From Myxococcota bacterium (GTDB lineage Bacteria; Myxococcota_A; UBA796; GCA-2862545), in contig OZ245034.1 of assembly GCA_965224055.1 (NCBI GenBank), positions 8,182,762-8,246,761 on the forward strand: a stretch of 64,000 nt of DNA, read 5' to 3'. Numbering within the stretch: position 1 is the first letter of the stretch; every line of letters begins with the position of its first letter. The notes below the pieces were generated by a model that did no database searches, was not told where the DNA came from, and saw nothing but the letters and a program-made list of their open reading frames with translations. The translations under genes and the position numbers were made by a program. This document shows, one piece after another, positions 32,679 through 56,894 of the stretch.

Positions 32679-32809
32679 TGTCACCTCCGTGCCACGCCAT
32701 TCTCTGATGGGGTGGCCAACCCGTTCGTGCATCCGCACTGTTCACCGTACTGTGCACACGCGTCGGGGCTTCGGAAAGGGTGCCCGCCACGCGAAACGCA
32801 GATTAACGG

Positions 32810-39745: not shown

Positions 39746-40510
39746 TCAGCGCGGGACCAGTTGAGCGACCCACTTGAGCGACTTCGCGGTGAGGGGGTGG
39801 CCGGCGAAGTCCTCTGCTCGGAACACCACCCGGTAGCCAGCATCCTGGATCAGCTGTTCCAGCTCCTCGCGCTCGAACATCCGCAGGCGCAGATGGCACT
39901 TCTCTTCGCTGCCGTCGCGATGGCGGTACGTGTAGAGCACGTGGTGGGTGCGTGAAGGCTCGTCCCACCACCCCTGCTCCCAGGTGTGCAGGGGCTGGCC
40001 GGTTCGCGGGTCCGAGAAGATCCGGTGCTCGTAGGTCCGGTCGGGATCGCGGTCGTACAGCTCCCGATCGGGAAGGTAGGCGTCGACCGCAACGCGCCCG
40101 TTCGGGCCGAGGTGATCGCGGATCCAGGTCAGGGTCTGCACGACGTCGTCGGGCCCCTTGCAGTGATGGATGGCGTTGAACGGCCACAGGATGAGCGCGT
40201 AGTCGTCCCGCGGCGTGCCCGAGGGCTGCCGGAAGTCGCCTTCCCAGAAGCGGATGCGTGCCTGGACGTTCGGGGGCTCTGCTGCGAGCTTCAGGCGCAA
40301 CCCCTCCAGCATCGTGGGCTCGAGGTCGACGCCGTCGATCCGGATGCCGGCCCGAGCGATGGGCAGCGTGAGCCGACCGGTCCCGCAGCCGAGCTCCAAC
40401 ACGGGGCCGCGGGTCTGACGCGCCAGAGCCTGGTAGTACTCGATATCCTCGGTGTGAGCGGCGTATTCGAGGTCGTACAGCGCGGGGTCGGCATACGGGT
40501 TGTCGTTCAT
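39746..40510 (-). CDS. Class I SAM-dependent methyltransferase
   Basis: Motif I VLELGCGTGRLT and downstream acidic-loop and motif II/III pattern. Start at the internal ATG (MNDNPYADP). Divergent (43-nt gap) from the ammonia-lyase pair. Confidence 0.8.
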   Translation of the reverse strand: MNDNPYADPALYDLEYAAHTEDIEYYQALARQTRGPVLELGCGTGRLTLPIARAGIRIDGVDLEPTMLEGLRLKLAAEPPNVQARIRFWEGDFRQPSGTPRDDYALILWPFNAIHHCKGPDDVVQTLTWIRDHLGPNGRVAVDAYLPDRELYDRDPDRTYEHRIFSDPRTGQPLHTWEQGWWDEPSRTHHVLYTYRHRDGSEEKCHLRLRMFEREELEQLIQDAGYRVVFRAEDFAGHPLTAKSLKWVAQLVPR

Positions 40511-40553
40511 GGCGCGATTGTACTCCCAGGGGTGGGCCGGATAGGGGTCGCGG

Positions 40554-42182
40554 ATGCAACCGCTCGAGCTCACCGGAAACGATCTGACCCTGGCCGACGT
40601 CGCGGCGGTCGCGCGGTCCCGACGGCCGGTCGCACTCGCAGCCTCGGCGCGCGAGCAGATGGCGGCCTCGCGGGCCTGGGTCGAGAGCGTGGTGTCCGGC
40701 GACGACGACATGCCCGTCTACGGCGTGAACACGGGCTACGGGTCGCTGGCGCGGGTGCGCATCGACAACCACAACATCGCTCAGCTGTCGTGGAACCTGG
40801 TGCGCAGTCACGCGGCAGGGGTGGGGCCATCGGCGTCCCCTGCGGTGGTGCGGGCGATGATGCTGTTGCGCGCGAACGCGCTGGCCAAGGGGGCGTCGGG
40901 GGTCCGTCCGGCGCTGGTCGACACCCTGTGCGCCATGCTGGAGGCCGGGGTCACGCCCATCGTCCCCGAACGGGGCAGCTGTGGATCGTCGGGCGATCTG
41001 GCGCCGCTGTCCCACCTGGGGTTGGTGGTGTTCGAGGGGCCGCGCGATGCGGCTCGGGATTCGTCCGCTCCAGACGGGTCGGTCGAGGATCGGGAGTCCG
41101 GCGAGGCGCTGTACGATGGGCGTCGCATGTCCGGGGCTGCGGCCATGCGCCAGGCCGGGATCCAGCGGCTCGTTCCGGCTCCCAAGGAGGGGCTGGGCAT
41201 GATCAACGGTGCCCAGCTCACCTGTGCGATCGCGGCCCTCGCCGCGGTCGATGCGAGTCGACTGGTGGTCGCGAGCGAGATCGCGGCGGCCATGAGCTTC
41301 GAGGCGCTCTTCGCGGTGACGCGCGCGCTCCACCCGGGTGTGCACCGGCTCCGCGCGTACGTCGGCGCCCGTCAGACGGCGGCCAACCTCCTGCGGCTCG
41401 TCGAGGGGAGCAGCCTGGTGGATGCGCTGCCAGACAAGGTGCAGGACGCGTACAGCCTGCGGTGCATGCCCCAGGTCGTCGGGGCTGCGCGGGACGGCAT
41501 CCGCTACGCGGCCGGGCAGATCGAGGTCGAGCTGAACAGCGTCACCGACAACCCCGTGGTGCTCCTGGACGTCGACGGTCCCAACAAGGCGTTCTCGGCG
41601 GGGCTGTTCCACGGCGAGCCACTGGGGATGGCGGCCGACCACCTGAAGCTGTGCGTGCTGGAGGTCGGGGCCATCTCGGAGCGACGGATCTACCGGCTCA
41701 CCACCGACAAGCTGTCGGCCCGGCTGCCTCCACTTCTGGCCGAGAAAGACGGGTTGCGGCTGGGATTGATGATGCCCCAGGTGTCGGCTGCCGCCCTGGT
41801 CGCTCAGAACCGCCAGCTGGCGTACCCGGCCTCGGCCGACAGCATCCCCACCTGCGAAGACCAGGAGGATCACGTCGCCATGAGCACCACGGCCGCGCGT
41901 CGAGCAGCCGAGGTGGTCGACAACACCCACCACATCGTGGCGATCGAGCTGTTGGCCGCCGCAAAGGGCTTGTGGTCGCGGCTCACGAAGGATCCGTCCG
42001 CGAAGCTCGGGGTCGGCACCGCTGCCGCTCTGGACGCTGTCGAGGCGGCCCTCGGGGGGCGGCGCACCTCCGAAGCACCGGCGGACGACATCGAAGCCCT
42101 GGGGCGGATCGTCCGCGACGGGAGCCTGATCGACCGCGTCCAGCAGGCCACGGGGCCGCTCCAGGGGGTCCTCGATGGCTGA
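40554..42182 (+). CDS. Aromatic/histidine ammonia-lyase family enzyme (HAL/PAL/TAL fold) with an Ser-Ser-Gly motif where HAL has the Ala-Ser-Gly MIO triad
   Basis: YGVNTGYG (catalytic Tyr region), GSCGSSGDLAPLSH (MIO triad region; SSG instead of the canonical ASG), NPVV and FHGEP segments. 542 aa. Confidence 0.85.
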   Translation: MQPLELTGNDLTLADVAAVARSRRPVALAASAREQMAASRAWVESVVSGDDDMPVYGVNTGYGSLARVRIDNHNIAQLSWNLVRSHAAGVGPSASPAVVRAMMLLRANALAKGASGVRPALVDTLCAMLEAGVTPIVPERGSCGSSGDLAPLSHLGLVVFEGPRDAARDSSAPDGSVEDRESGEALYDGRRMSGAAAMRQAGIQRLVPAPKEGLGMINGAQLTCAIAALAAVDASRLVVASEIAAAMSFEALFAVTRALHPGVHRLRAYVGARQTAANLLRLVEGSSLVDALPDKVQDAYSLRCMPQVVGAARDGIRYAAGQIEVELNSVTDNPVVLLDVDGPNKAFSAGLFHGEPLGMAADHLKLCVLEVGAISERRIYRLTTDKLSARLPPLLAEKDGLRLGLMMPQVSAAALVAQNRQLAYPASADSIPTCEDQEDHVAMSTTAARRAAEVVDNTHHIVAIELLAAAKGLWSRLTKDPSAKLGVGTAAALDAVEAALGGRRTSEAPADDIEALGRIVRDGSLIDRVQQATGPLQGVLDG

Positions 42183-43695
42183 TGTCGTGCTCGATGGTCG
42201 TCGGCTCACGCCCCGCCAGGTCCAGGATGTCGCTCGGGGCGCGTCGGTGTCGATCGACCCCGCAGCTCTGCAGCGCATGGCCGAGTCCGCCGCGATGTTC
42301 CCGCGGTCCATCATCCGCGAGAAGTGGTCGCTGCTGGTCGGGGGCGAGGCACCCGCAGAATCCGCGGCTGCGATCCGTACCTTCATTCAGGGGCACTGCG
42401 CAGGGGTCGGCGAGCCGCTTCCCACCGAGGTCGTGCGCGCGCTGATGTGCGTGCGGGCGAACGTCCTCGCCACCGGCCTCACGGGTGCGCGTCGCGAGGC
42501 GGCCGAGCTGCTCGTGGCCATGCTGGAGCACGGGATCACGCCGGTCGTTCCCCGCGTGGGTTCCGTCGGAGTCGGGGGGAGCATCGCGCTGGCCCACATC
42601 GTCCGCGTGATGTGCCGCTACGGAGGGCGGGCCGAGGTCGACGGGGTGCGTCTGGATGCCGCCGAGGCGATGGCGCGGCTCGACTGGTTCACCCCCACCG
42701 AGAAGGACGCGTTGTCGCTCATCAACGGCAGCACCCTCACCACGGCGATGGGCGCGCTGGCCGTGGCCGGGGCGCACACGTTGTTGGACGCTGCTGTGGC
42801 CGCCTGTGCCCTGTCGATGGAGGTGGTCAAAGCCGATGTCCACTGCCTCGAAGATGGGCCTCTCGTCGCGCGGAACCACCAGGGCGCTGTCCAGGTCGGG
42901 CGCCGATTGCGGTTGTTGCTGGACGGGAGCACCCTGGCGACGCCTCAGCGGATGCCGGACTCGTTCTCGATCCGCTGTGCTCCCCATGCCCTCGGAGCGG
43001 CCTACGACACGGTGCGCTACTGCGAAGACGTCGTGGTGCGCGAGCTGAACGGCGCCATCGACAATCCATTGGTGTTCGCCGACAGCCGACAGGTCCTCGA
43101 AGGCGGCAACTTCCACGGCGCCCCGGTGGCGCTGGTGATGGACCACCTCAAGGCCGGGCTCACCCAGGTGGGCTCGATGGCCGAGCGACGCCTGTTCCGC
43201 CTGGTGTACGGCCAGCTGTCGGGCCTGCCGAGCTTCCTGGTCCACGGAACCGGGATGAACAGCGGCTTCATGCTCGCCCAGTACACCGCGGCCAGTCTGG
43301 TGAGCGAGTGCAAGGGGTTGTCCCATCCGGCCAGCGTCGACAGCCTCCCCACGATCCAGCATCACGAAGACCACGTGTCCATGGGCCCGAACGCGGCATC
43401 GGGTGCGCTGCATCTGGTCGATCTGCTCTCGGACGTGGTCGCGATCGAGCTCTTGTGCGCGGCTCAGGGGCTCGACTTCCACCTGGCTGGAGATGCCGTC
43501 GATCCCGATGGCAATCGGGTGTCCGTCGCGGTCGAGCGAGCAGGAGCCGGAACCGCCGCCATCCACGCGGTCGTGCGGGGGCTCGTCCCGCGCTGGGAGT
43601 CCGACCGGGTCCTGCACTCCGATCTCAAGCGACTCGGTGTGGCCGTGCGGTCCGGCATGTTCGGACGCGAGGCGATCGAGCGGCGCTTCGGCTGA
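42175..43695 (+). CDS. HAL-family paralog lacking the MIO triad and the YGVNTG motif (predicted non-catalytic partner)
   Basis: Overall HAL-like architecture (ARDGIRY-like, DNP, FHGAP, HHEDHVSMG). The MIO position reads GSVGVGGSIALAH with no Ser-Gly and no DLxPL, and there is no Tyr-loop motif near the N-terminus. Its start overlaps the upstream HAL stop by 8 nt. Confidence 0.75.
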   Translation: MADVVLDGRRLTPRQVQDVARGASVSIDPAALQRMAESAAMFPRSIIREKWSLLVGGEAPAESAAAIRTFIQGHCAGVGEPLPTEVVRALMCVRANVLATGLTGARREAAELLVAMLEHGITPVVPRVGSVGVGGSIALAHIVRVMCRYGGRAEVDGVRLDAAEAMARLDWFTPTEKDALSLINGSTLTTAMGALAVAGAHTLLDAAVAACALSMEVVKADVHCLEDGPLVARNHQGAVQVGRRLRLLLDGSTLATPQRMPDSFSIRCAPHALGAAYDTVRYCEDVVVRELNGAIDNPLVFADSRQVLEGGNFHGAPVALVMDHLKAGLTQVGSMAERRLFRLVYGQLSGLPSFLVHGTGMNSGFMLAQYTAASLVSECKGLSHPASVDSLPTIQHHEDHVSMGPNAASGALHLVDLLSDVVAIELLCAAQGLDFHLAGDAVDPDGNRVSVAVERAGAGTAAIHAVVRGLVPRWESDRVLHSDLKRLGVAVRSGMFGREAIERRFG

Positions 43696-43768
43696 GGCCA
43701 TCGCGTCGGGTGAAACGGTTCGGCAGTCTCCGGCATACCCCGAGTCGAGCCCCCACCCCGGAGCGTCC

Positions 43769-44497
43769 ATGTCCGTTCTCGCCGCGCTGTTGTTCTCGCT
43801 CTCCGGTCCCGCTGTCGCGGCCGAGCCGGTCGCCCTCGTCGAGCTGTTCACCAGCCAGGGCTGCAGCTCGTGTCCACCTGCCGATGCCCTCGCGCAGGAG
43901 CTCGCGGCCGAAGCCCGGCGCGGAGAGCAACCCCTGGTCGTGCTGTCGTTCCACGTCGACTACTGGAACCGCCTGGGCTGGCCCGACCCCTACAGCGATG
44001 CCGAGTTCACCGCTCGCCAGCGCGCCTACTCGGCCAGCCTCGGGGAAGGGGGGCGGATCTACACCCCTCAGGTGGTCGTGAACGGCGCCGATCACGCGGT
44101 GGGGTCGAACCGCGGCCTGGTGAAGGGGCTGATCGCAGGTGCCCTGTCGAAACCCGCGACCGCGACGGTCTCGGGCGAGGCCAGCTTCGCGAAGGACACC
44201 GTGTCCGTGAGCGTGAAGACGGGCGATGCTCCGAAGAACGCCACGGTCTTCGTAGCCCTGGTCGAGCCCGAGAAGACCAACGTGGTCCCGCGGGGGGAGA
44301 ACAGCGGAAAGACCCTGTCGCACGCGAACGTCGTGCGGGCCCTGGTCGAGGTGTCGATGCAGGACGGCGATGGCCAGGCCACGCTGTCGATCCCGGACGA
44401 CGTGGAGCGCGAGGATGCCCGCATCGTCGCCTGGGTGCAGGACGCGCTCACCAACCACGTGCTCGGCGCCGGGGCGCTGCCGCGTTCGGAGAGCTGA
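43769..44497 (+). CDS. DUF1223-family secreted thioredoxin-like protein
   Basis: Signal peptide, then VELFTSQGCSSCPPAD (CxxC), then HVDYWNRLGW, characteristic of DUF1223. Confidence 0.7.
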   Translation: MSVLAALLFSLSGPAVAAEPVALVELFTSQGCSSCPPADALAQELAAEARRGEQPLVVLSFHVDYWNRLGWPDPYSDAEFTARQRAYSASLGEGGRIYTPQVVVNGADHAVGSNRGLVKGLIAGALSKPATATVSGEASFAKDTVSVSVKTGDAPKNATVFVALVEPEKTNVVPRGENSGKTLSHANVVRALVEVSMQDGDGQATLSIPDDVEREDARIVAWVQDALTNHVLGAGALPRSES

Positions 44498-45922
44498 TCA
44501 GTCGCCGGAGCCGTGGCCGACACGCGGCAGGTCGCGGTCCAGGTCCCAGTCGGGGTCCCACTTCTCGGTGTGGCACGAGGTGCAGACCGCTTCGATGACG
44601 CACACCGGGCAGTCGTCGCCCAGGCGTTCGATGTTGTCTTTCCCGCCACCGGCCTCGATGTGTGCGCCACCAGGTCCATGACAGGCCTCACAGCCCACGC
44701 TCTCGTCGATGCGGAACGCGGCGAGGTCCGACCCTGGAGGCCCGCCTCTGGCGCCTGTGGCGTGGCAGCGTACGCACGCGACGTCCTCCTCGGCCCCTTC
44801 CGGCACCTTCTCGCCGGGCGTCTTCAGGGTGGCCATCGCGGTGCCGTGGGGGGTCTTCTTCCAGTCGGCGTACTCGGCTTCGTGGCAGCTCTTGCACGCC
44901 TCTGCGCCGCGGGTCTCGGCGTCTTCGAAGGCCAGGAGCGGCCGGGGAGCCTCGCCGTCGACCAGCGCCAGGCGACGCTCCCGGAATTCGTCGTCCGAGA
45001 TGGCCACGCCCGCGTAGTGATCGATGAGCGGCAGGCCCTTCTCGACCGTGAACGCGATGCTGTGCTTCTCGTCGTGACAGCCCGCACAGGTCGATGTCGC
45101 GTCGGTCTTCTCGCCGTCGTGCGGACCCGATGGCCCGTGGCACGACTCGCACCCGACGTTCACGAGGTCGGGTGTGGAATCGCCCGTCCAGCCGGTCTTC
45201 TCGCCGTTGCCGGTCACGTGACAGCCCGTGCACTCGCGGTTGTCGTGGTCGCCCTTCTTCACCAGCGTGCGCCAGGCGACGGAGTGGTGGGACAGCGCCC
45301 AGCCTTCGAGCTCCTGCTGGTGACAGCCTCCACAGCTGCCGTTCCCGAGGTAGGTGCCGTCGAAGGCCTTCCAGGGGTCGTCGAGCACCCGCATCTTCAC
45401 GTAGGTGTCGAAGCCCGGCTGATAGGGGTACCAGAGGTCGACGATGCGGTACGTGCCCTTCTTCTTGCCCGGCTCGACCAGGATGGCCGACGGAGTGGAG
45501 CGCACGCCGAGCTCGCTCGAGATGGTGCGCCCGAGATCGACGACCACCTCGTCTTCGATGCCGTACTCCTTGCGGAAGTCCTCGACGTCGCCCTTGAGCG
45601 AGCTGCCCGTGGCCACGCCGATCACGGTGGCTTTGCCCTTCAGCGCGCGTCCGAGATCGCCGAGCTCTCTGCCGACGGCCTGACAGTGAGGGCAGCTGGG
45701 CGAGAAGTAGTAGATGAACGACCGGCCCTTCCCGAGCTTCTTGGCGAAGTCGTCGTCGAACGACAGCTCGGGGAGCTCGGAGGTGTCGGGGCCGGCCAGC
45801 ACCCGGGGTGCACCGATGGCCATCTGCCCTTCGCTCCAGCCACGGGGGTCGGCGGTGGTGGCGATGGCGGTGGTCACGACCAGCAGCAGGGCGATGGACA
45901 GGGCCAGAACACGGCGACTCAT
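44498..45922 (-). CDS. Thioredoxin-like (TlpA/ResA-type CPHC) domain fused to an octaheme c-type cytochrome
   Basis: Signal/TM N-terminus. FSPSCPHCQ thioredoxin motif. Eight CXXCH motifs (CGGCH, CTGCH, CESCH, CAGCH, CKSCH, CVRCH, CEACH, CTSCH). Start ATG overlaps the upstream gene stop (ATGA). Confidence 0.8.
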   Translation of the reverse strand: MSRRVLALSIALLLVVTTAIATTADPRGWSEGQMAIGAPRVLAGPDTSELPELSFDDDFAKKLGKGRSFIYYFSPSCPHCQAVGRELGDLGRALKGKATVIGVATGSSLKGDVEDFRKEYGIEDEVVVDLGRTISSELGVRSTPSAILVEPGKKKGTYRIVDLWYPYQPGFDTYVKMRVLDDPWKAFDGTYLGNGSCGGCHQQELEGWALSHHSVAWRTLVKKGDHDNRECTGCHVTGNGEKTGWTGDSTPDLVNVGCESCHGPSGPHDGEKTDATSTCAGCHDEKHSIAFTVEKGLPLIDHYAGVAISDDEFRERRLALVDGEAPRPLLAFEDAETRGAEACKSCHEAEYADWKKTPHGTAMATLKTPGEKVPEGAEEDVACVRCHATGARGGPPGSDLAAFRIDESVGCEACHGPGGAHIEAGGGKDNIERLGDDCPVCVIEAVCTSCHTEKWDPDWDLDRDLPRVGHGSGD

Positions 45923-48612
45923 GGGGTCTCCAGTTCGCGATCGGTGGAGTCGGCGTCGAGCAGGCGAGCGCGGAGCTTCTCGGCGCGGCGTCGTACCCAG
46001 GCTCGGGATGGATCGGCCGCGAGTGCATCGGTCCAACGCGCGAAGGCGGCTTGATCGTCCCCGGCTGCGAATGCGGCATCCCCTTCGGCTTCCCAGCGGT
46101 CGGCGAGCACCGACCCTGCCTGGACGACGGCTTCGGGGTGGTGGTCGTACCGGCGGGCCTTCGCGATCAGCGCGGGGTCGTCGGTGGCTTCGGCCTGGCG
46201 GGCCCAACAGCTCGCCAGGGCGGCGTCGACCCGGGGGTCGGTCGAGGTGTGCCAGGGGTCTTCGGGGGGGAGGTGTCGGCGCGCCTGGCTCCAGCGGCTC
46301 CACGCCTCGTCGCATCGGCCCGCATCGGCGGCCTCGACAGCGGCTTGGACCCCGGAATCGGCCGTCTGCACGACCTGGTTGCGGGGTGCGACCTCGATCA
46401 GGCCCACGAACCGGGCCTCTCCGGCCATGAACACCGGACGACCCACCTGGCGGCTCAGGTCGGTCTCGCCCGCTTCGTCCTTGGGGGTGCCGGCGAATCG
46501 GGCGTCGTTCACATCGTCCGGGATCACGGCGACTCCGACGTCGTACCGCCCTGGGGGCAGGTCGTCGGGAAGGGACACGGTATGGCGGCCGACCATCACC
46601 TGCTTACGCCTCCAGCGCGGAACCGGAATCCAGTCGTATGCAGGTGGGAGCTCCTTCACCACGCGCAGGCCTGCGGGCCCCTCGCCGGTCTGGGACAGGA
46701 AGAGCAGCGCGCGGAAGCCGTTGGGGCGGCGCGTTAAGGACCAGCCGATCTCGACGTACAGCCCACCGCCGGGGTGGACCTGGGGAGCGGGGACCTCGAG
46801 CCCGTTCATCCGGGCCTTGCCGAAGTCGACGCGACGCCCCGGAGTCCCGTGCCACACGTCTTCGGTGAACAGATCTTTGCGGACGTGGTTGCCGACGTGG
46901 AACTTGCTCGGGCTGTGGCCGTAGCCCGGGATCTCGACGTAGTTCGGCCGGAACCAGGGGCGCTTGTCGATGCCGGTCTTTCGGGCCCAGCCGCCGTGGA
47001 CGTGGGCGAAGGTGGGGTTCCGCTCGCCTCGGACGTAGTCGTCGATGAACGCGCGGTCGTAGTGATGGCGTGCGATCGGCACGTCGACCAGCCCCGCCAT
47101 GTCGGTGAGCTCGAAGCCCGACCACCACATGTGGGCGCCCATGTCGACCTCGAGAAGGCTGGCGTGATCGAGGTGGAGGCGCGCCTGGACGCCCTGCATG
47201 TACAGAACGCGACGGCGGACGTCGAAGGGCGTGGTCTCCAGGCCGAACAGGAACGAGACGGTCTGGCCGAAGCCGCTGGCGAGCACGGGAAACACGAGCA
47301 ACAGCGCGATGACGCCCGGCATCATGGGGCGCTTTGCGAGTCGCATGCTGATCGCGTCGGCCAGGGGCTTGCCGGTCGCGGCCAGGTGGCGGGCGGCGTC
47401 GGCCAGCAGCACGGCGAGAGGGACGTAGGCCATGTTGAGCCAGCGATAGCCGCGCATCCAGTCGCCGCCGGTGTACACGGCGAAGAACAGGGCGCACAGG
47501 GTGAGGACCCACGCGAGCATCCGGGCGGTGTGGCCCCCTCTTCCGATGCCGAGCAGGGGGAACAGCGCCGCGCACAGGATGAGGGTGCCGACACGGATCT
47601 GTACGGCGAGCTCGGGCTCGGGGGGCAGGTCGAAGGGGCCGTACGCGCGGAACCAGTGCACGCCGGAGAAGCAGACGCCCATCAGGATCCCGGTGGCGAC
47701 GAGCCCCACCATCCCGCGCCACCCGCGCGCGCCCGATTGGCCCAGGGTGTACAGCGGGAGCAGGAAGCCCTGGGTGCTGACGAGAGCCCAGCGTCGCACG
47801 TAGTTCCAGCCGCGCTCTCCCCACCCGAAGGGCTGGAACTTCTCGTCGGTGAGCTTGGCGTAGTACGTGTTCGGAAACTCCCAGGCGAAGGTCCAGTATC
47901 GCCAGGCGTGCCAGGTGCAGAACGGAGCGAGTCCGGCGAGCGCGAAGCTGGCCAACCAGCGGAATCCTCCGGCACGGACGGCCCAGATGGCCCCGAACAC
48001 CGCGATCACCCCCGCGTACATGGGGGCTTCGGGCCGGGTGATCGCCAGCAGGCCCAACAGCACGCCGGACAGGCCCCAGCTCGGTCGGTCGCCCTCGGCC
48101 AGGATCCGCACGGCCCCTGCCGCCAGCAGCAGGGTGAACAAGCCGTTCTCCAGTCCGGATGCGCTCCACAGCACGTGTTGGGTGGACACGGCGAGCACAA
48201 GGGGGGCGAGGAGCGGCCAGTTGCCGGGGTCGGCCCCTTGTTCTTCGGCAGTGCGACGGGCCCAGAGGTACGCCAGGGGGAGGCATGCCAGCCCGAAGCC
48301 CAGCCCCAGCAGCTTCCCGGTGATCCAGGGGGGGAGGCCGAAGAACGCGGTGACGGCGAGCAGCAGGGTCCAGGTGGGGTTGCTGAAGCCTTCGACCGGC
48401 TCTGCACCGGGGGTGGGAACAGGCCCCTCGCCGTGCGCGATGTTCTCGGCGAACGCGTAGCTGATGGCGGCGTCTTCGATCAGCCAGGTGCTGAACCACA
48501 CGGCGTGAAAGCAGTACACGGCCATGCACAGCACGATGCCGGTGACGTGGCGACGCCCAGTGGGGGACAGCGCGGCGAAGCGTCGTGCGAGGGCGTCGAG
48601 CAGCTGCGTCAT
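45919..48612 (-). CDS. Large polytopic membrane protein, GT-C-like (ArnT/PMT/Emb-like) putative glycosyltransferase, paralog A
   Basis: More than 10 TM helices. Conserved first-loop motif WLIEDAAISYAFAEN (a D/E pair as in GT-C enzymes). Conserved soluble C-terminal domain (HFAHVHGGWA, YVEIPGY, HVGNHVRKDLF) followed by a TPR-like tail. Start at the internal ATG (MTQLLDAL). Confidence 0.65.
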   Translation of the reverse strand: MTQLLDALARRFAALSPTGRRHVTGIVLCMAVYCFHAVWFSTWLIEDAAISYAFAENIAHGEGPVPTPGAEPVEGFSNPTWTLLLAVTAFFGLPPWITGKLLGLGFGLACLPLAYLWARRTAEEQGADPGNWPLLAPLVLAVSTQHVLWSASGLENGLFTLLLAAGAVRILAEGDRPSWGLSGVLLGLLAITRPEAPMYAGVIAVFGAIWAVRAGGFRWLASFALAGLAPFCTWHAWRYWTFAWEFPNTYYAKLTDEKFQPFGWGERGWNYVRRWALVSTQGFLLPLYTLGQSGARGWRGMVGLVATGILMGVCFSGVHWFRAYGPFDLPPEPELAVQIRVGTLILCAALFPLLGIGRGGHTARMLAWVLTLCALFFAVYTGGDWMRGYRWLNMAYVPLAVLLADAARHLAATGKPLADAISMRLAKRPMMPGVIALLLVFPVLASGFGQTVSFLFGLETTPFDVRRRVLYMQGVQARLHLDHASLLEVDMGAHMWWSGFELTDMAGLVDVPIARHHYDRAFIDDYVRGERNPTFAHVHGGWARKTGIDKRPWFRPNYVEIPGYGHSPSKFHVGNHVRKDLFTEDVWHGTPGRRVDFGKARMNGLEVPAPQVHPGGGLYVEIGWSLTRRPNGFRALLFLSQTGEGPAGLRVVKELPPAYDWIPVPRWRRKQVMVGRHTVSLPDDLPPGRYDVGVAVIPDDVNDARFAGTPKDEAGETDLSRQVGRPVFMAGEARFVGLIEVAPRNQVVQTADSGVQAAVEAADAGRCDEAWSRWSQARRHLPPEDPWHTSTDPRVDAALASCWARQAEATDDPALIAKARRYDHHPEAVVQAGSVLADRWEAEGDAAFAAGDDQAAFARWTDALAADPSRAWVRRRAEKLRARLLDADSTDRELETP

Positions 48613-48616
48613 GGGG

Positions 48617-51600
48617 TCACTTGCGCGGCGTGGGCTTCTTGGCCTTCCGCTTCCGCTCCTTGGCGGCTCGGTCGCGTTTCTCCCGTGCCTCGCGGGCTCT
48701 CTGCATCCTCTCCTCGCGTTCGGCGGCCCGCTTGGCCTCCTTCTCGGCGAGGGATTCCGGATCGATGCCCAGGCGGAGGGCTCGGGCCTCCTCGGCGTAG
48801 CGACGGGCCCAGGAGCGCCACGGATCGGCGCGCAGCACCCGGGAGAAGTGCTCGAAGGCCTCCTCCCAGTTGCCGGCCTCCCGCGCGGCCATGCCCAGGG
48901 CGTAGTGGGCGTCCGCAACGGGGTCTTTCGCCTCGAGATAGGCGGGCTGGCGGTGGTCGTGCAGGCGAGCACGCTCGAGGTAGGTGACGGCGAGCTCGGA
49001 GTCCGGGGGCTCCTGCTTCGCGCGCCACGACCAGCAGATCGACAGCTGCATCGCCACGGTGGGGCCGTGCTGGTTGCGGTATCGCTTGTCGATCGGGCGG
49101 TGGCGCTTGGAGAGGAACCAGCTGTGCTCGGCCTTCTCGCAGCGTCCCTTTCGTCCGTGCTCGAGGGCTTCCTGGCGATCGGTCTTGGCGAGGGTGGACA
49201 GCTCGTCGAGGGACACGACGGTCAGCGCGCCGGGGAACACGACCTCGCCCTCGACGTAGATGGGCTCGCGGGTGGGCCGGACCTCGTCCTCGTCGGTGGT
49301 CCCGATCCACGCGCCGTCTGGGAGGGTGGGCTCGGGCTCGTCGGGGTCGGGCTGGACCTCGGGGTCGTCGGGGGTGGGGACGGGTCGTGGCGGCAGCACG
49401 GCGCCGTCGGGATCGAAGAACGCGAACCCGATGTCGTAGTCGCCCACGGCCATGTCCTTGGGGATGGGCAGCTTGTAGCGACCCACGTTGACCTCGTTCG
49501 GCTTCCACTCGTCGGCGGGCAGCCACCCGTAGTTGAGCGGGATGGCCCAGGTCTGGACGAGCTCTCCGTTCTGGCTCGCGAACATGTGGACCGCGACGTC
49601 CTCGCCCTCTTTGCGGGCCAGCGCGTTGCGGATCGCGATCTCGACCCACATCAAGCGGGCCTGCGCGGGCTCGCTCGGCAGGTCGAAGCCCTCGAGCACC
49701 AGCCCGCCCTGCATGGGGATGCGGCGGTCGGGCTGGTCGCTGCGGGGTTCGTAGCGCCGGGACAGGAACAGGTCGCGCCGGACGTGGTTGCCGATGTGGA
49801 GCTTGGTGCGGCCGGCGGGGTAGCCCGGGATCTCGACGTAGTCGCGCCGCCACTCGGGATGCGTGGGGATGCGGGAGTTGCTGGCCCAGCCCCCGTGCAC
49901 GTGCGCGAAGTGGGGGCGCCGCTCCTCGAACAGGTATTCGCGGATGAAGGGCTTCTGGAAGCGGTGCTGGGCCATCGGGATGTCGACCAGCCCGGCGATG
50001 TCCATCATCGCGAGCTCGCCCCGACCCCACCACAGATGCGCGCCCTGATCGACGTCGAGATCGACCATGGGCCCCTCGATCTCCAGGGTGTCTTTGAGGT
50101 CCAGCACGAACTGCACGCGCTTCTTGATCGCGAACGGACCGGTCTCGGGGAAGGGGAGCACCGCCATCGTGTGGGTGATGTTCGGAATCAGTGCCGTGGC
50201 GGCGATCAGCGACAGCACCGTCCATCCGGCCATGGTCCACGGGCCTCTCGAGCGCTCCGAGAGCAATCCGCCCATCAGGGCCGTGATCATCGCGCCCTCG
50301 ATGATGGCGAGCAGCCACCACTTGCCGAGCACGAACTCCGGGCCTGCGACGGTCCAGATGACGATCAGCACCACCTGCATCACGGCCCAGAACACCTTGT
50401 CGCCCGCGAACGAGCGGGCCCGGACGAACACCCGATCGACGGCGTCGGCCAGGGCGCCGGCCCCCATCGCGAACAGCACGGCGGCGGGGACCTGCAACAG
50501 ACTCATCCAGCGCCAGGCCTTCATCCAGTCGCCCAGCGTGTAGATGCTGAAGAACAGCACTCCGACGGCGATCCCCCAGCACAGCACGCGCGCCTGCCAG
50601 CCCTTGCGTCCGCCCAGAGCCAGGTTGGGCAGCAACAGGGCGGCGCCGACCATCATCCAGGACCGCCCGTCGACCCACCAGGTGGGCGCCGGCATCCCCT
50701 GGGGCCACCACGGAATCGTGTTGAAGGCGTCGTTGGTGGGGTAGATCAGCCAGAACGCCATGAACAGCAGGGCGAACAGCGCGACGATGCCCCGCCAGCC
50801 ACGCGTTCCGACGAGCCCGAAGATCCACAGCGGGAGGAAGTACGCGGTCCACAGGTCGTGCGACCAGTTCCGGACGTAGCGCCACCCGCGGGTGTTCCAC
50901 GCCATCTTGGGGTCCTTCGTGGTCATCTTGCCGTAGTACGTCTGCGGGAACTCGTAGGCGAAGTACGAGAACCGCACGGCGTGGTAGACCCCGAACGGGA
51001 CGAAGAACAGCGCCAGCCACTGCAGTGTGCGTCTCACGCCCACCTTCGTGCCGTGTGCGTGCAGGGCGAAGCACATCGTCAGGAAGCCCGCGATGGCGCA
51101 GTACAGGATGGCTTCCGGGCGAGAGATGGCGAGCAGGAACCAGAAGAACGCCGCGAACGGGAAGCCACCGGTGCGGATCTCGATGGCCGACCGGAGGAGG
51201 GCCGCGGCCAGGATGCAGTTGAACAGCGCGTTCTCGAGTCCGCACGACGCCCAGATCGCGTAGGTGCTGGCGGCTGCGAGGTAGCTCGCAGCGACCAGGG
51301 GGGCGTGGCGCTGGCCGGCCTCGTTGGGCGAGGCTTCACGGGCCAGCCAGTAGACCAGCGGGACCGTGATGCCGCCGAGCACGGCCTGGAGAACCTTCGA
51401 CGCATCGAAGCTGTCGAAGCCGAGCAGCTCTGCCACGGTGAGCAGCGCCACCCAGGTGAAGTTGGAGTAGCCCTCGAGCCGCTCGCCGCCGGGGTAGGCC
51501 ACCAGCCCTTCTCCCCAGGCCCAGTTGCGGGCGAAGGCGAACGAGATGGCGGCGTCTTCGATGTACCAGCCCCAGAACTGGAACTGGTGCCAGACGACGC

Positions 51601-51739
51601 CCACGATGCACGCCAGGACGACCAGTCCGTGCAGCACCGCGACGAGTAGAGGACGGCGGTCGGCACGGGCCTCGACACCGGACGGGGCTTCGGGGGTTTC
51701 AGCGTCGTCGGTGGACACCCGGTCTCCTGCGGAACCCAC
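48617..51739 (-). CDS. Large polytopic membrane protein, GT-C-like putative glycosyltransferase, paralog B
   Basis: Same architecture and motifs as paralog A (WYIEDAAISFAFARN, HFAHVHGGWA, YVEIPGY, HIGNHVRRDLF). Lys/Arg/Glu-rich coiled C-terminal tail. 4-nt gap to paralog A. Confidence 0.65.
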   Translation of the reverse strand: MGSAGDRVSTDDAETPEAPSGVEARADRRPLLVAVLHGLVVLACIVGVVWHQFQFWGWYIEDAAISFAFARNWAWGEGLVAYPGGERLEGYSNFTWVALLTVAELLGFDSFDASKVLQAVLGGITVPLVYWLAREASPNEAGQRHAPLVAASYLAAASTYAIWASCGLENALFNCILAAALLRSAIEIRTGGFPFAAFFWFLLAISRPEAILYCAIAGFLTMCFALHAHGTKVGVRRTLQWLALFFVPFGVYHAVRFSYFAYEFPQTYYGKMTTKDPKMAWNTRGWRYVRNWSHDLWTAYFLPLWIFGLVGTRGWRGIVALFALLFMAFWLIYPTNDAFNTIPWWPQGMPAPTWWVDGRSWMMVGAALLLPNLALGGRKGWQARVLCWGIAVGVLFFSIYTLGDWMKAWRWMSLLQVPAAVLFAMGAGALADAVDRVFVRARSFAGDKVFWAVMQVVLIVIWTVAGPEFVLGKWWLLAIIEGAMITALMGGLLSERSRGPWTMAGWTVLSLIAATALIPNITHTMAVLPFPETGPFAIKKRVQFVLDLKDTLEIEGPMVDLDVDQGAHLWWGRGELAMMDIAGLVDIPMAQHRFQKPFIREYLFEERRPHFAHVHGGWASNSRIPTHPEWRRDYVEIPGYPAGRTKLHIGNHVRRDLFLSRRYEPRSDQPDRRIPMQGGLVLEGFDLPSEPAQARLMWVEIAIRNALARKEGEDVAVHMFASQNGELVQTWAIPLNYGWLPADEWKPNEVNVGRYKLPIPKDMAVGDYDIGFAFFDPDGAVLPPRPVPTPDDPEVQPDPDEPEPTLPDGAWIGTTDEDEVRPTREPIYVEGEVVFPGALTVVSLDELSTLAKTDRQEALEHGRKGRCEKAEHSWFLSKRHRPIDKRYRNQHGPTVAMQLSICWSWRAKQEPPDSELAVTYLERARLHDHRQPAYLEAKDPVADAHYALGMAAREAGNWEEAFEHFSRVLRADPWRSWARRYAEEARALRLGIDPESLAEKEAKRAAEREERMQRAREAREKRDRAAKERKRKAKKPTPRK

Positions 51740-51773: not shown

Positions 51774-52061
51774 TCACCGCTTCTTCCGGTCGAACCGACC
51801 GATCCGTCGGTTCACCCCGGCGAGGCGGTCGCGCCAGCGCTGCTTGATCCGCCGCACGCGGGCGCGTCGGGCGTTCGCCCAGGCCTCGTCGAGCGCGCTC
51901 CAGCTGTGGTCTTCGGGGGTGGTCTTGCGGAACAGCATGAACCGCGCGGCTCGCGCAGCCTGGTCGAGCGCGCTGCCAGGCTCCGGATCGATCCGATCGT
52001 CGAGGAGCTGGAACAGCCGACCGGCCAGCTTGGGACGCCGCGCTTCGATCGCGTAGCCCAC
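51774..52061 (-). CDS. Small basic hypothetical protein (GTG start)
   Basis: High GC3 throughout. 95 aa, Arg-rich. 144 nt downstream of the PspA-like gene on the same strand. Confidence 0.4.
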   Translation of the reverse strand: MGYAIEARRPKLAGRLFQLLDDRIDPEPGSALDQAARAARFMLFRKTTPEDHSWSALDEAWANARRARVRRIKQRWRDRLAGVNRRIGRFDRKKR

Positions 52062-52205
52062 GATCTCGACGAGCTCGTCGGTGTTGTCCGCGTCGTCGGC
52101 ATCCAGCCATTCACGGACGAAGGCGTCCTCGGCCTCGGGGGTACGGGCCGGGAGGACGCCTTCTTCGGACGGTTCGTGTGGTGGGGATTCCGAGATCGGA
52201 CCCGC

Positions 52206-52919
52206 CTACATCGTCTTCTTGACGCCTTCGGCGGCCGCGGACTTGCGGGCTTCCATCTGGCGCTTCATCTCGGCGAGCTGCGTACGCGCGTTGGCGTTGC
52301 TGGCCTTCTCCTTGATCTTGGCGAGCTTCGCATCCAGCGAGTCGCCCTTGATCTCGGCGCCGATGTCGGCCTCGGCCTGCAGCTTGTCGATGTGCTCGCG
52401 CACGTTGTCGAGGGCCTTGACGTCGGCGTCCGTGGACAGTCCGTCGAGGGTCTCCTGGATGTCGATGCGGGCCTCGGCGTTGGCCTTGGCGGCGAGCATC
52501 TTCTCCTTCTCGCGCTTGAGCTTCTCGATCTCGGACTGGAACTGCAGCAGGCCGGACTTGGCGTCCTCGGCCTGGTCGGAGACCTTCTTGAGCTCGGCGG
52601 AGAGGCTCTCGATCGAAGCGGTGAGCTCGTCCTTCTTCTGGATCAGGACCAGCGCGACCTCGTCTTCGCCGGTGTCGATCGCGACGGGGAGCTGCTGCAT
52701 GACATCGCGGAGCTCGTTCTCCTTGGCCTCGAGCTCGGTGGACAGCTTGTTGCGCAGGTAGACGATCCCGCTGACTGCCTTCTTGAGCTCGCGATGCTTC
52801 CGGACGCGCTCGTCGATGGCCGCTTCGTACACAGCCTCGGGGTTCCGCGCCTCGATGTCGGAGACCCAGAGATTGAGGAAACCGCGCCAGACGTTGGCGA
52901 GCCGATCGAAGAAACCCAT
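52206..52919 (-). CDS. pspA: PspA/IM30-family protein (phage-shock protein A-like)
   Basis: N-terminal MGFFDRLANVWRGFLN amphipathic helix and coiled-coil repeats typical of PspA/Vipp1. Start at the internal ATG. Confidence 0.8.
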   Translation of the reverse strand: MGFFDRLANVWRGFLNLWVSDIEARNPEAVYEAAIDERVRKHRELKKAVSGIVYLRNKLSTELEAKENELRDVMQQLPVAIDTGEDEVALVLIQKKDELTASIESLSAELKKVSDQAEDAKSGLLQFQSEIEKLKREKEKMLAAKANAEARIDIQETLDGLSTDADVKALDNVREHIDKLQAEADIGAEIKGDSLDAKLAKIKEKASNANARTQLAEMKRQMEARKSAAAEGVKKTM

Positions 52920-53020
52920 GTGTGACTGACCCCCTGGGGTTGTGGAGAGGGTATGCCCGGCACGCTCGCCGGGCAAGAGCCCCGCACCCAACCGTACCCC
53001 CGACATCCCAAGTGTATTGC

Positions 53021-53470
53021 ATGGCCGGGCGATCGGCGGGCGATCGCGCTAGTTCCGGGTGCGTGAAGGCACTATTCCTGGTGGCATTGGGCGGAGCGGC
53101 GGGGGCCGTGTTGCGCCATCTCGCGGGCGCGGGCGTCACCTCGATCGTCGGTCGGAGCGTTCCCACCGACGGGCAGTTCCAGCCGTTCACGTGGGGATCG
53201 ATGCCCTGGAGCACCCTGCTCGTGAACGTCGTGGGCTCGTTCGTGCTGGGGGCGCTGGTCACCTGGGTCGCGCGGACCGAGGCCTCGCCGGACATCAAGC
53301 TGCTGGTGGGCACGGGCTTGTGTGGCGCGCTCACCACGTTCTCGACCTTCTCGGTCGAGACGCTCTCGCTGGTGCAGTCGGGCCACCGCGCGGCCGCGAT
53401 CGCGAACCTGGCCCTGAACGTCGTGCTGGGGCTGTCCGCCGCGGCGCTGGGAATCTGGGCGCTCCGATGA
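53021..53470 (+). CDS. crcB: Fluoride ion channel CrcB/FluC
   Basis: LVALGGAAGAVLRH, GTGLCGALTTFSTFS and NLALNVVLGL motifs. An alternative GTG start lies at 53063. No fluoride-riboswitch consensus was seen upstream. Confidence 0.8.
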   Translation: MAGRSAGDRASSGCVKALFLVALGGAAGAVLRHLAGAGVTSIVGRSVPTDGQFQPFTWGSMPWSTLLVNVVGSFVLGALVTWVARTEASPDIKLLVGTGLCGALTTFSTFSVETLSLVQSGHRAAAIANLALNVVLGLSAAALGIWALR

Positions 53471-53537
53471 TTCGGCCGGCCCAGGTACCCCCGGAAAATG
53501 TGCTCGTGCCTCCGCGCATTTCGGAGGCACCGTTCTC

Positions 53538-55325
53538 TTGGCCGTCGAGGCATTCTGCGCTAAGAAGCCCAACCCGCTCTCGGGAGGTCTCCGCGTGTCT
53601 CGTTCTGTCGACGTCTTCTCCGTCCTCGCCCTGTCGCTCGGGCTGATCCCGGCATCGGCCAGCGCTCGGCCCGTGCCCGTGGGCTTCTCGGCCGGCTCTG
53701 CTGCTTCTGGTCCGTCCGATCCGTCCGTGGTGTCCGACTCTGCCGATGACGTCGACTGGCTCGGGGGTCACGCGCGCGAGATGCTCCAGCGTGGCGGCGC
53801 CCCCGGTCTGCCCACGCCTCCCGCTCCCGGTGGGCTTCCCCCGGCCACGCCCGGTCCGGATGTCCGGGTCTACGGCTACCTCGCGTACTGGGACGACGAT
53901 CTGAACCAGGTGCCGTGGGACCAGATCTCCGACATCGCGATCTTCAACGCCGACGTCGACACCGCGGGCAACCTCTCCAACACGTCGCGCTGGGATCAGG
54001 CCGCGACCGCCGTGCAGATGGCCGCTCCGTACGGGGTCCGCGTGCACCTGTGCGTCACCAACTTCAGCACGAGCGAGCTCGAGACCCTGCTCGGCAACCC
54101 CGCGGCGCGCACCAACCTGATCAACCAGCTCGCCTCGTGGGAATCCACCACGGGGGCCCACGGGATCAACATCGACTTCGAGAACCTGCCGTTCTCCCGC
54201 AAGCAGGAGATGGTGCAGTTCACGGCCGATCTCGACGCTGCGGTGGGGGATGTCGTCCTGGCCGTTCCGGCGGTCGACTGGGAGGCGGCCTGGGACTTCG
54301 ACGCCCTCACCCTCAACGCCGATCTGTTCATCATGGGGTACGGCTACCACTGGTCCGGCAGCAGCGAGTCCGGCCCGACCGACCCGCTCCACGGGGGCCC
54401 TGGCACGGTGTGGGCCAGCGATCACGCCCTGGACTGGTCGGTCGAGGACTACCTCTTCTACGGAGCCGCTCCAGACCGGCTGATCCTGGGCCTGCCGCTC
54501 TACGGCCGCAGCTACTTCGTGTCGAACAACAACGTGCCGACCGCGTCCAACGGCGACAACGGCTCGGTCACCTGGGCGGCTTCGGCGCCCCAGATGCCCA
54601 GCGCCACCCACGAGGCCACGGGCGAGTCGATGTACTACTACGACGGCTTGACGCAGACCTGGAACAACGACGTCGAGACCATGCGCGCCAAGGTCCAGTA
54701 CGCCGTGAACGAGGGCATCGCGGGCATCGGGTTCTGGGCGCTCAACTACGACGACGACGACCCCGCCCTGTGGTCGATGATCGACCAGGAGACCACCTTC
54801 GGGGTGGCCGACACCGACACGGACACCGATACCGACACGGACACCGATGCCGACGCCGATGCGGACTCGGATGCCGATGCCGACGCGGATGCGGACACCG
54901 ACAGCGATGCCGACACCGATGTCCCGGTCGACAACGCGTTCACGGCCGTGGTGGGCGATCCGCTCCTGGCGTACATGGGCGACACCGTGGTCCTGAACGC
55001 CGAGGCCAGCACGGGCCCCGAAGGCGTGCCGCTGGTCTACCAGTGGACCCGCACCTACGGCCCGGATGTGCAGTTCGACACCCTCGACACGCCCACCCCG
55101 AGCTTCGTGGCCACGGAGCCCGGCAACTACGGGTTCCGGGTCCGGGTCGGAGACGGTCAGTCCTCGAGTGCCCCGGCCGAGACCTTCGTGGTGGTGGTCG
55201 ACCCCGAAGCGCGGATGTCCGTCACGCCGAAGGGCTGCGGGTGTTCGAGCACGTCTGCACCGGCTGGAATGCTGGGTGTGCTCGCGATGGGCCTGCTGGG
55301 ACTGGCGTTCCGCCGCCAGGACTGA
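53538..55325 (+). CDS. GH18-family glycoside hydrolase (chitinase-like) with (Thr/Ala-Asp)n linker, PKD-like domain and MYXO-CTERM tag
   Basis: GH18 DxxDxDxE-region (HGINIDFE). MYYYD and GIGFWAL motifs. C-terminus PKGCGCSSTSAPAGMLGVLAMGLLGLAFRRQD. The start may be a downstream GTG nearer the signal peptide. Confidence 0.8.
   Translation: MAVEAFCAKKPNPLSGGLRVSRSVDVFSVLALSLGLIPASASARPVPVGFSAGSAASGPSDPSVVSDSADDVDWLGGHAREMLQRGGAPGLPTPPAPGGLPPATPGPDVRVYGYLAYWDDDLNQVPWDQISDIAIFNADVDTAGNLSNTSRWDQAATAVQMAAPYGVRVHLCVTNFSTSELETLLGNPAARTNLINQLASWESTTGAHGINIDFENLPFSRKQEMVQFTADLDAAVGDVVLAVPAVDWEAAWDFDALTLNADLFIMGYGYHWSGSSESGPTDPLHGGPGTVWASDHALDWSVEDYLFYGAAPDRLILGLPLYGRSYFVSNNNVPTASNGDNGSVTWAASAPQMPSATHEATGESMYYYDGLTQTWNNDVETMRAKVQYAVNEGIAGIGFWALNYDDDDPALWSMIDQETTFGVADTDTDTDTDTDTDADADADSDADADADADTDSDADTDVPVDNAFTAVVGDPLLAYMGDTVVLNAEASTGPEGVPLVYQWTRTYGPDVQFDTLDTPTPSFVATEPGNYGFRVRVGDGQSSSAPAETFVVVVDPEARMSVTPKGCGCSSTSAPAGMLGVLAMGLLGLAFRRQD
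54811..54918 (+). repeat. Hexanucleotide (GAC-RCC/GAT-GCC)n microsatellite encoding a (TD/AD)n linker
   Basis: About 18 tandem GACACC/GACGCC/GATGCC units inside the GH18 gene. Confidence 0.6.
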
Positions 55326-56812: not shown

Positions 56813-56894
56813 GGGTGCTGCGAGGCTCTGACCGACCCAGAGCGCTGAGACGCCCGCCCGTGCGGGCTCGCTGGTATACTGCCGCTCCGGAGGC

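Follow-up and report, generated by a model that had tools for sequence, protein, structure and literature searches.

Twin GT-C-like membrane proteins and a thioredoxin-octaheme cytochrome fusion recur together in Myxococcota

This study concerns a group of genes in a 64,000-nucleotide stretch of the genome of a Myxococcota bacterium (GenBank assembly GCA_965224055.1, contig OZ245034.1; the whole stretch is referred to as the window, and coordinates are counted from its first letter), in which two adjacent genes for large paralogous membrane proteins, here called BIG1 and BIG2, are followed by a gene for a protein joining a thioredoxin domain to eight heme-binding sites (the fusion). From structural modelling we are confident in assigning BIG1 and BIG2 as predicted integral-membrane glycosyltransferases of GT-C_A fold, belonging to an unnamed family without a Pfam model, and the structural annotation of the locus proteins as a whole is held with high confidence. 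The folds are of known kinds; new are the unnamed BIG family, the arrangement of the twin genes with a presumably heme-wired thioredoxin, and the association with PspA, none of which was found in the literature searched. That the fusion and the twin GT-C proteins are linked in function is considered probable, at somewhat better than even chances. A tentative reading, to which slightly less than an even chance is given, is that BIG1 and BIG2 would form a heterodimeric, periplasm-facing glycosyltransferase using a lipid-linked sugar and that the fusion would be a heme-recycled oxidoreductase working on the same acceptor, by analogy with MagT1/TUSC3.

Results

Gene arrangement

Five genes on the minus strand follow each other almost without gaps in the order PspA/IM30 gene, a small conserved open reading frame (ORF), BIG1, BIG2 and the fusion, and apparently constitute one operon. 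BIG1 (48617..51739, 1040 amino acids (aa) when read from a GTG) is separated from BIG2 (45919..48612, 897 aa) by a 4-nt spacer, CCCC (TGAccccATG), and the TGA of BIG2 overlaps the ATG of the fusion gene (44498..45922, 474 aa) in the sequence ccATGAgt. The stop codon of the fusion gene directly abuts, with zero spacing, that of a convergent gene on the plus strand encoding a DUF1223 protein (TGA followed by TCA). The G+C content of the window is ~69% and reading frames were picked by third-position GC, which reaches 0.86–0.92 in the frames of the fusion, BIG1, BIG2 and DUF1223 and argues against chance frames. The public annotation of the same genome contains identical 897-aa and 474-aa products but another start for BIG1, the exact start of which, and hence its length of 1040 aa, is uncertain. 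A promoter and terminator scan of the region 43.5–53.7 kb gave nothing above shuffled expectation. The ATGA overlap, the twin paralogues with their shared motifs and the zero-spaced convergent CxxC protein of DUF1223 type had all been reported in a first-pass annotation made from the sequence alone and are found as described; the PspA/IM30 gene and the small ORF directly upstream of BIG1 were missing from it.

Conservation of the twin genes with the fusion

Conservation was studied in the neighbourhoods of homologues together with 80 genome loci retrieved by a BIG profile, against which the proteins of the window were run with tblastn and hmmsearch. The 82 resulting loci comprise 23 unique twin loci, with two adjacent BIG genes that often overlap by 4 nt, and 59 single-copy loci. 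Of the twin loci, 19 have at least 2 kb of downstream sequence, and 17 of these carry the fusion; among 52 single-copy loci it was present at 2 (Fisher p 3e-12, without correction for phylogeny).

The distance between the fusion and the twin BIG genes is 0–8 kb (L001–L006, L011, L016, L020, L022 and others) and their relative position varies. The fusion gene comes directly after BIG2 in the window, L002, L003, L011 and others; it is located 2–3 kb downstream with unrelated genes in between in L001 and L005, and 8 kb upstream on the opposite strand in L004. In L087 (6912-14225) the order is BIG-fusion-BIG, the start of the fusion gene overlapping the stop of the first BIG gene and the second BIG gene starting 5 nt after the fusion ends. 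Directly upstream of the fusion in L088, an orthologue found independently in a metagenome (48% identity), there is likewise a BIG gene. The placement of the fusion among relatives is accordingly not random, as the combination recurs at 35–65% identity despite the changed gene order. A neighbour-joining tree of the BIG family separates a BIG2-like clade, T2, a BIG1-like clade, T1, which includes some lineage-specific re-duplications, and a single-copy clade, S; the window's BIG2 and BIG1 belong to T2 and T1, respectively, and both single-copy loci that have a fusion fall in T1.

Some of the observations weigh against a functional connection. Shared ancestry may contribute to the count given above, one orthologue of the fusion (L086, 62% identity) has no BIG gene within 10 kb, and the distant fusions L089–L094 (30–34% identity) have no BIG gene, their contexts being unrelated ones such as Hsp70-DnaJ or MtrC-like cytochromes. 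The single-copy BIG relatives, in turn, have no fusion nearby, so that GT-C activity would not be intrinsically dependent on it. For the orthologous group the linkage is strong though not absolute, and it does not extend to the thioredoxin-octaheme architecture in general, which, having been called unusual at first, is real but not unique to this locus.

Such observations fit an explanation which we consider improbable, that the linkage is synteny inherited in one Myxococcota lineage, without functional meaning, and that the fusion has nothing to do with the GT-C genes, being an ordinary protein of electron transfer or thiol-redox chemistry. Twin-plus-fusion and single-copy loci lie in separate clades, which would allow one ancestral arrangement, genes for aromatic amino-acid lyases, a methyltransferase, GH18, rhomboid and a kinase also recur in subsets of the loci, and L086 has the fusion alone. 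Inherited synteny is harder to reconcile with BIG orthologues that are only 33–46% identical at these loci, with widely different immediate flanks and with a proximity kept in at least four different arrangements. Stop/start overlap or near-contact is furthermore seen in the window, L002 and L087 (an upstream ORF ends ~10 nt from the fusion start in L087 and runs into the fusion in others), and the fusion, at ~50% identity, is more conserved than its neighbours.

Many contigs that carry a BIG gene of this Myxococcota type (L006, L013, L014, L018, L036, L058, L061, L078 and L083) are entitled, for example, 'uncultured Enterobacteriaceae', 'Klebsiella pneumoniae' or 'Alphaproteobacteria bacterium' and are probably taxonomically mislabelled bins of metagenome-assembled genomes. 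Lineage-specific redox genes that are not conserved were also noticed near the module, an HTTM (vitamin-K-dependent gamma-carboxylase-like) gene in one relative (L003, 16965-17840) and a MauG/di-heme peroxidase gene in another (L004, 4349-5455).

Structure of BIG1 and BIG2

The two proteins are 33% identical over their full length (E 1e-137) and have the motifs W-x-IEDAAIS-x-AFA, FAHVHGGWA, YVEIPGY and HxGNHVR in common. Searches revealed at least 282 clusters of homologues at 90% identity (E <= 1e-5) and 174 genome loci, nearly all from environmental Myxococcota metagenome-assembled genomes; all homologues are 'hypothetical' or generically named and almost all lack a Pfam domain.

An AlphaFold2 model of BIG2, built on 57 sequences, has a predicted local distance difference test score (pLDDT) of 93 and a predicted template modelling score of 0.91. 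It consists of a helical membrane domain (residues 1–478, 47179-48612, minus strand), a periplasmic alpha/beta cap (479–590), a beta-sandwich (591–742) and a TPR-like helical domain (743–897). BIG1 likewise has cap, beta-sandwich and TPR domains, with TPR Pfam matches at residues 917–980, and in addition a hydrophobic insertion at residues 446–505 which corresponds to two extra transmembrane helices relative to BIG2. The C-terminal domains are predicted to be periplasmic, in the same compartment as the heme protein, because of the number of helices in the model, the basic N-terminus and the insert of two helices in BIG1, which preserves the topology. The end of BIG1 (residues ~995–1040; 48617-48760, minus strand) is a Lys/Arg/Glu-rich tail, EKEAKRAAEREERMQRAREAREKRDRAAKERKRKAKKPTPRK, that is absent from BIG2 and odd for a predicted periplasmic domain.

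When the BIG2 model was compared with known folds AftB was the closest structural match, AftA, AftD and EmbA were also matched, and the protein glycosyltransferases PMT, STT3 and PglB scored almost as high as AftB, so that the GT-C type first suggested for the large proteins is supported by their modelled fold. Weak matches of the beta-sandwich were to the Wzt carbohydrate-binding domain, RbmA and the GH2 sugar-binding domain. The BIG proteins have ~11 or more transmembrane helices each, including the multi-helix core of GT-C_A enzymes (the first ~7 transmembrane helices).

Sequence comparisons were less clear. The full-family BIG profile gave one marginal match to AftB (E 6e-4), and it counts against the assignment that a second profile, of the N-domain, did not reproduce this match, with nothing even at E 10; the assignment to GT-C consequently rests on the fold comparison and not on sequence. 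The N-domain profile does reach ~540-aa PMT_2 proteins named 'arabinofuranosyltransferase' by the Joint Genome Institute (E 1e-45 to 1e-58). Against the PDB, BIG1 and BIG2 matched by sequence only TPR repeats, and among the Pfam models neither PMT nor PMT_2 came above threshold for either protein. Matches of BIG2 to DUF2142 (E 1e-3, 18 bits against a cut-off of 30) and LA_3751/2 (15.7 bits against 200) were below threshold, BIG1 had no match to curated GT-C family models, and a few BIG homologues carry PF13231 or PF09913.

The architecture of AftB (PDB 9dlh/9dlf; GT-C_A), with ~11 transmembrane helices and a periplasmic cap, is similar to that of the BIG proteins, but its motif is Asp-Asp where BIG has Glu-Asp, and the BIG proteins are 300–440 residues longer, with an added beta-sandwich and TPR domain, and occur as a tandem pair of paralogues. 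The donor of AftB is decaprenyl-phospho-arabinose, genes for the synthesis of which were not seen near BIG, and we know of no arabinan in Myxococcota. Similarity to AftB in sequence is marginal, and the BIG proteins are not classed as its orthologues. Compared with Pmt1-Pmt2, Pmt4 and TPR-bearing GT-C enzymes of the TMTC type they lack a MIR domain, and the HxH and GNH motifs of the BIG cap have no counterpart there.

Conserved residues of the BIG family

Invariance was assessed over 57 and then 102 family members from three clades. Glu46-Asp47 of BIG2 (48472..48477, minus strand), equal to Glu61-Asp62 of BIG1 (51554-51559, minus strand), is invariant in all 102 sequences and is placed by the model in the first periplasmic loop, after transmembrane helix 1 and directly before a predicted helix at residues 48–59. 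In GT-C_A enzymes an essential Asp is found in periplasmic loop 1, at the tip of juxtamembrane helix 1 (PMC12041299), and as both BIG1 and BIG2 have an acidic residue at this position the pair is proposed, by analogy, as the putative catalytic acids. Also invariant in the 102 sequences are R193-P194, K253 and D384-W-M...R390. Glu46-Asp47 and the basic residues among these are paralleled in AftB by D62, R221 and R372 (PMC12041299), and the comparison with R221 and R372 makes R193, K253 and R390 candidates for binding the donor phosphate.

A second group of residues, D490, G492, D504, D510, H537, H539, W542, H572 and G574, is invariant in all clades and situated in the cap, where the motifs FAHVHGGWA, YVEIPGY and HxGNHVR span 46879..47004 (minus strand) with D490, D504 and D510 upstream of that span. 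This cluster of His and Asp is a candidate substrate- or metal-binding site. A metallophosphoesterase-like site was considered for the HxH, GNH and Asp motifs, and the order of the motifs does not fit that family. All family-invariant residues are retained in BIG1 as well as in BIG2, so that neither has the appearance of a dead copy.

The only conserved cysteines of the family, C767 and C802, are located in the TPR-like periplasmic domain, and together with the tight coupling in the operon they suggest that the fusion might service the BIG proteins themselves, by forming or maintaining an invariant C767-C802 disulfide or as a redox switch set by the respiratory state. This is considered very improbable, as the two cysteines are equally invariant in single-copy relatives without a nearby fusion and as a wire of eight hemes seems excessive for one structural disulfide.

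The thioredoxin-octaheme fusion

Pfam searches with the fusion gave matches to AhpC-TSA/Redoxin (residues 65–151) and to two stretches of Cytochrome_C554 (PF13435; E 5e-27, 95 bits against a cut-off of 20.8) with four CXXCH motifs each, at residues 197, 231, 258, 279, 343, 383, 411 and 447. The protein thus has a thioredoxin domain (residues ~57–165, 45428-45754, minus strand) and two cytochrome-c554-type tetraheme modules (residues ~190–474, 44501-45355, minus strand), preceded by its one hydrophobic segment, at residues 5–23, which is predicted to be a signal peptide or anchor. Together with the fold matches and the conservation described below these domains confirm the earlier description of a TlpA/ResA-like CPHC thioredoxin with eight CXXCH sites.

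An alignment with 51 homologues, 48–86% identical to the protein of the window, showed that in the CPHC active site (residues 77–80, 45683..45694, minus strand) C77, H79 and C80 are invariant and P78 is conserved in >90%, that the cis-Pro loop T143-P144 is invariant and that the eight CXXCH motifs all show no or hardly any variation. Of the other His, six are invariant and two are present in >90%, which suffices for bis-His ligation of all eight hemes and suggests, as far as can be judged from the alignment, an electron wire rather than a catalytic heme. A second CxxC, C438-P-V-C441 (44600..44611, minus strand), is invariant in all four residues and lies inside the heme domain just ahead of the eighth heme site; the preceding loop, residues 429–437, has a pLDDT <50 in the model. 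Possibly this CPVC is a relay from thiol to heme.

All top fold matches of the thioredoxin domain are TlpA-like or peroxiredoxin-like, and the domain has the thioredoxin fold with the TlpA-type insertion, the CxxC, the cis-Pro loop and the predicted extracytoplasmic location of TlpA/ResA-like proteins. CPHC is the active-site motif of the oxidase DsbA, but DsbA is absent from the 50–60 listed fold matches and membership of the DsbA family was rejected on these grounds; the fusion may nevertheless work like DsbA. A ResA orthologue (NCBIfam ResA, 15 bits against a cut-off of 170) and an orthologue of Nitrosomonas cytochrome c554 (NCBIfam NF043010 equivalog, 52.7 bits against 400) were likewise rejected. 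CPHC is known in ResA only as an engineered variant (PDB 3c71), and whereas proteins of the TlpA/ResA/CcmG/DsbE type depend on DsbD/CcdA, the fusion instead carries eight hemes. Compared with cytochrome c554 it has a duplicated tetraheme module, the thioredoxin domain and the extra invariant CPVC.

Profile searches with the fusion among 1.84 billion representatives gave 120 clusters at E <= 1e-30, including a second group of 600–720 aa with an N-terminal extension. Homologues are publicly named 'redoxin domain-containing protein', 'multiheme c-type cytochrome' or 'thiol-disulfide isomerase', and literature searches found no paper describing the protein. A metagenome scan, performed with generic heme-motif patterns, returned mostly unrelated c554-type cytochromes, and full-length fusions only in L088–L094. 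Of the fusions in L089 (5286-10045), L090 (2-4850) and L091 (9320-15041) two come directly after an Hsp70-DnaJ pair, and one, with two AhpC-TSA stretches, is found beside MtrC-like and c3/c7-like multiheme cytochromes.

PspA and other neighbouring genes

The first gene of the apparent operon (52206..52919, minus strand; the ORF continues to 53006, the likely start, MGFFDRL, being at 52919) belongs to PspA/IM30 (PF04012; 78.3 bits against a cut-off of 33.9, E 8e-22, for 52206-53006). A PspA gene precedes BIG in 44 of the 49 single-copy loci (median gap 22 nt) and in 11 of 18 twin loci, which makes it the most conserved neighbour of the whole BIG family. Neither 'glycosyltransferase' nor 'GT-C' occurs in the text of a broad survey of the genomic contexts of PspA (PMC11237479).

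The small ORF between PspA and BIG1 (51774..52205, minus strand) encodes a soluble protein of ~126–143 aa with a basic C-terminus and no Pfam match. It is present in 18 of 27 twin/fusion loci and is 44–45% identical to its positional equivalents in L001, L005 and L087. The reading frame (51774-52208) has no ATG, GTG or TTG before a GTG at 52061, yet the homology (LPxR..EDAFV) begins ~30 codons earlier, and it is in the frame of PspA, directly behind its TAG stop. A non-canonical start, read-through of the stop codon giving a PspA fusion, or a truncated copy are possible explanations.

Divergently upstream of PspA (52922-55325, plus strand) are genes for a CrcB fluoride channel, which is also found in L001, L005 and L087, and for a GH18 glycoside hydrolase that includes a PKD domain; many of the loci, twin as well as single-copy, have GH18 close to BIG. 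On the other side of the operon the DUF1223 gene (43763-44497, plus strand; PF06764, E 1.6e-60, 205 bits; CSSC motif) was rejected as a member of the module, since its adjacency recurs only in the closest relative, L002, among 85 loci. The envelope module proposed in the first-pass annotation is therefore kept for the twin BIG genes and the fusion but not for DUF1223.

Beyond it are two genes for aromatic amino-acid lyases in tandem, with an 8-nt overlap (40554-42182 and 42175-43695), a divergent methyltransferase gene (39746-40711) and a 414-aa gene of unknown function (38479-39723). This block recurs convergent to the fusion in L002, L011, L020, L059, L073 and L087; occurring in only about six loci, and convergent, the lyases and the methyltransferase were set aside as synteny and not included in the module. 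Three Ser/Thr protein kinase genes are present in the window (15487-19503, plus; 20172-23138, minus; 56832-58403, plus), two of them very large with TPR and AAA/STAND-type domains, and a kinase recurs near BIG in 9 of 27 twin loci. At 31323-32738 (minus strand) the window encodes another membrane-organisation protein besides PspA, of the SPFH/Band-7 type and with GYF_2 as its C-terminal domain.

Discussion

In the function proposed here the BIG pair would transfer a sugar from a polyprenyl-phosphate-linked donor to an acceptor at the periplasmic face, the acceptor being selected by the large C-terminal periplasmic region with its cap, beta-sandwich and TPR domain. Such a donor is suggested by the fold, since to our knowledge every characterised GT-C enzyme uses a polyprenyl-phosphate-linked sugar. 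As both proteins keep all family-invariant residues and are always adjacent, BIG1 and BIG2 most likely act as a heterodimer, by analogy with Pmt1-Pmt2 and EmbA-EmbB.

The fusion would be secreted, or held by its anchor, on the side of the membrane where the BIG C-terminal domains are, and there its TlpA-like domain with the DsbA-type CPHC would exchange electrons with client cysteines. Its eight hemes would carry electrons to or from the respiratory chain, possibly via the extra CPVC, and so recycle the CxxC without DsbB or DsbD. In this way the oxidoreductase could determine whether the cysteines of an acceptor in the envelope, or of a secreted one, are thiols or disulfides, so that the GT-C pair can glycosylate it. 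The closest precedent for how the module may work is STT3B with MagT1/TUSC3 (Ost3/Ost6), in which a GT-C subunit is paired with a membrane-anchored thioredoxin-fold CxxC protein on the same membrane side; MagT1, which belongs to the STT3B complex and has a thioredoxin fold, is required through its oxidoreductase activity for sites close to cysteines (PMC4137057). The likeness is limited, as MagT1 has no hemes and another membrane domain, Ost3, Ost6, MagT1 and TUSC3 combining the thioredoxin domain with a four-helix transmembrane domain where the fusion has a single N-terminal hydrophobic segment. Gene structure, folds, conserved residues and conserved linkage are results of the analysis; the type of donor, the heterodimer, the direction of electrons, a protein acceptor and the cooperation of the enzymes are what we infer.

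Several results do not favour this proposal. No clade-specific residues or cysteines marking the twin paralogues as clients of the fusion were found beyond one Trp/Phe column, and the window contains no gene for a polyprenyl-phosphate-sugar synthase or a flippase and no obvious acceptor gene. A Thr in front of the cis-Pro is seen more typically in reductases and isomerases than in DsbA; the CPHC argues for an oxidase, the Thr and the TlpA-like fold also fit a reductase, and electrons may flow in either direction.

Rather unlikely, in our judgement, is that the BIG pair instead makes or modifies a polysaccharide or a glycolipid, such as an exopolysaccharide side chain or one resembling arabinan, with the beta-sandwich as a carbohydrate-binding module, and that the fusion serves the periplasm in general as a redox enzyme (a disulfide oxidase or reductase driven by heme, or an enzyme repairing oxidative damage) and shares the operon with PspA for envelope maintenance rather than for a common substrate. 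AftB, the nearest structural match, is a polysaccharide arabinofuranosyltransferase, and the matches to AftA, AftD and EmbA, the names of the distant sequence relatives and the weak sugar-binding matches of the beta-sandwich point the same way. PspA, which is connected with envelope stress, and GH18 are conserved neighbours, and the single-copy BIG relatives manage without the fusion. TPR domains, though, usually bind proteins, PMT, STT3 and PglB nearly equal AftB in score, and the fusion stays beside BIG across several rearrangements while other neighbours vary; nor were polysaccharide export or polymerase genes found in the window.

The first-pass annotation had also seen in the locus a coupling of redox chemistry to glycosyl or polymer transfer. 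Its statement that the gene combination is undescribed stands, as literature searches brought up no paper on the combination or on the BIG family; the coupling is a hypothesis, by which the conserved operon structure may extend to function. A more far-reaching version, and an improbable one, is a machinery for glycosylation in the bacterial periplasm that includes a redox subunit of its own, heme-wired to the respiratory chain, as an independent counterpart of the oligosaccharyltransferase with MagT1/TUSC3 that bypasses DsbB and DsbD, with PspA tying glycosylation to the control of membrane stress.

GT-C enzymes build major extracytoplasmic glycoconjugates such as N- and O-glycoproteins, arabinan and lipid A modifications, and a large unnamed family, BIG, is now defined with a structural assignment that gives a candidate active site. 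Should the proteins act independently, this is still a useful annotation of two uncharacterised families. The near-universal PspA neighbour hints at a use of lipid-linked sugars tied to protection against membrane stress, and the conserved pairing of the twin genes with the fusion suggests a periplasmic thiol chemistry driven directly from the electron-transport chain. If the GT-C and redox activities do cooperate, this would be the first case in bacteria comparable to the eukaryotic oligosaccharyltransferase with its oxidoreductase subunits.

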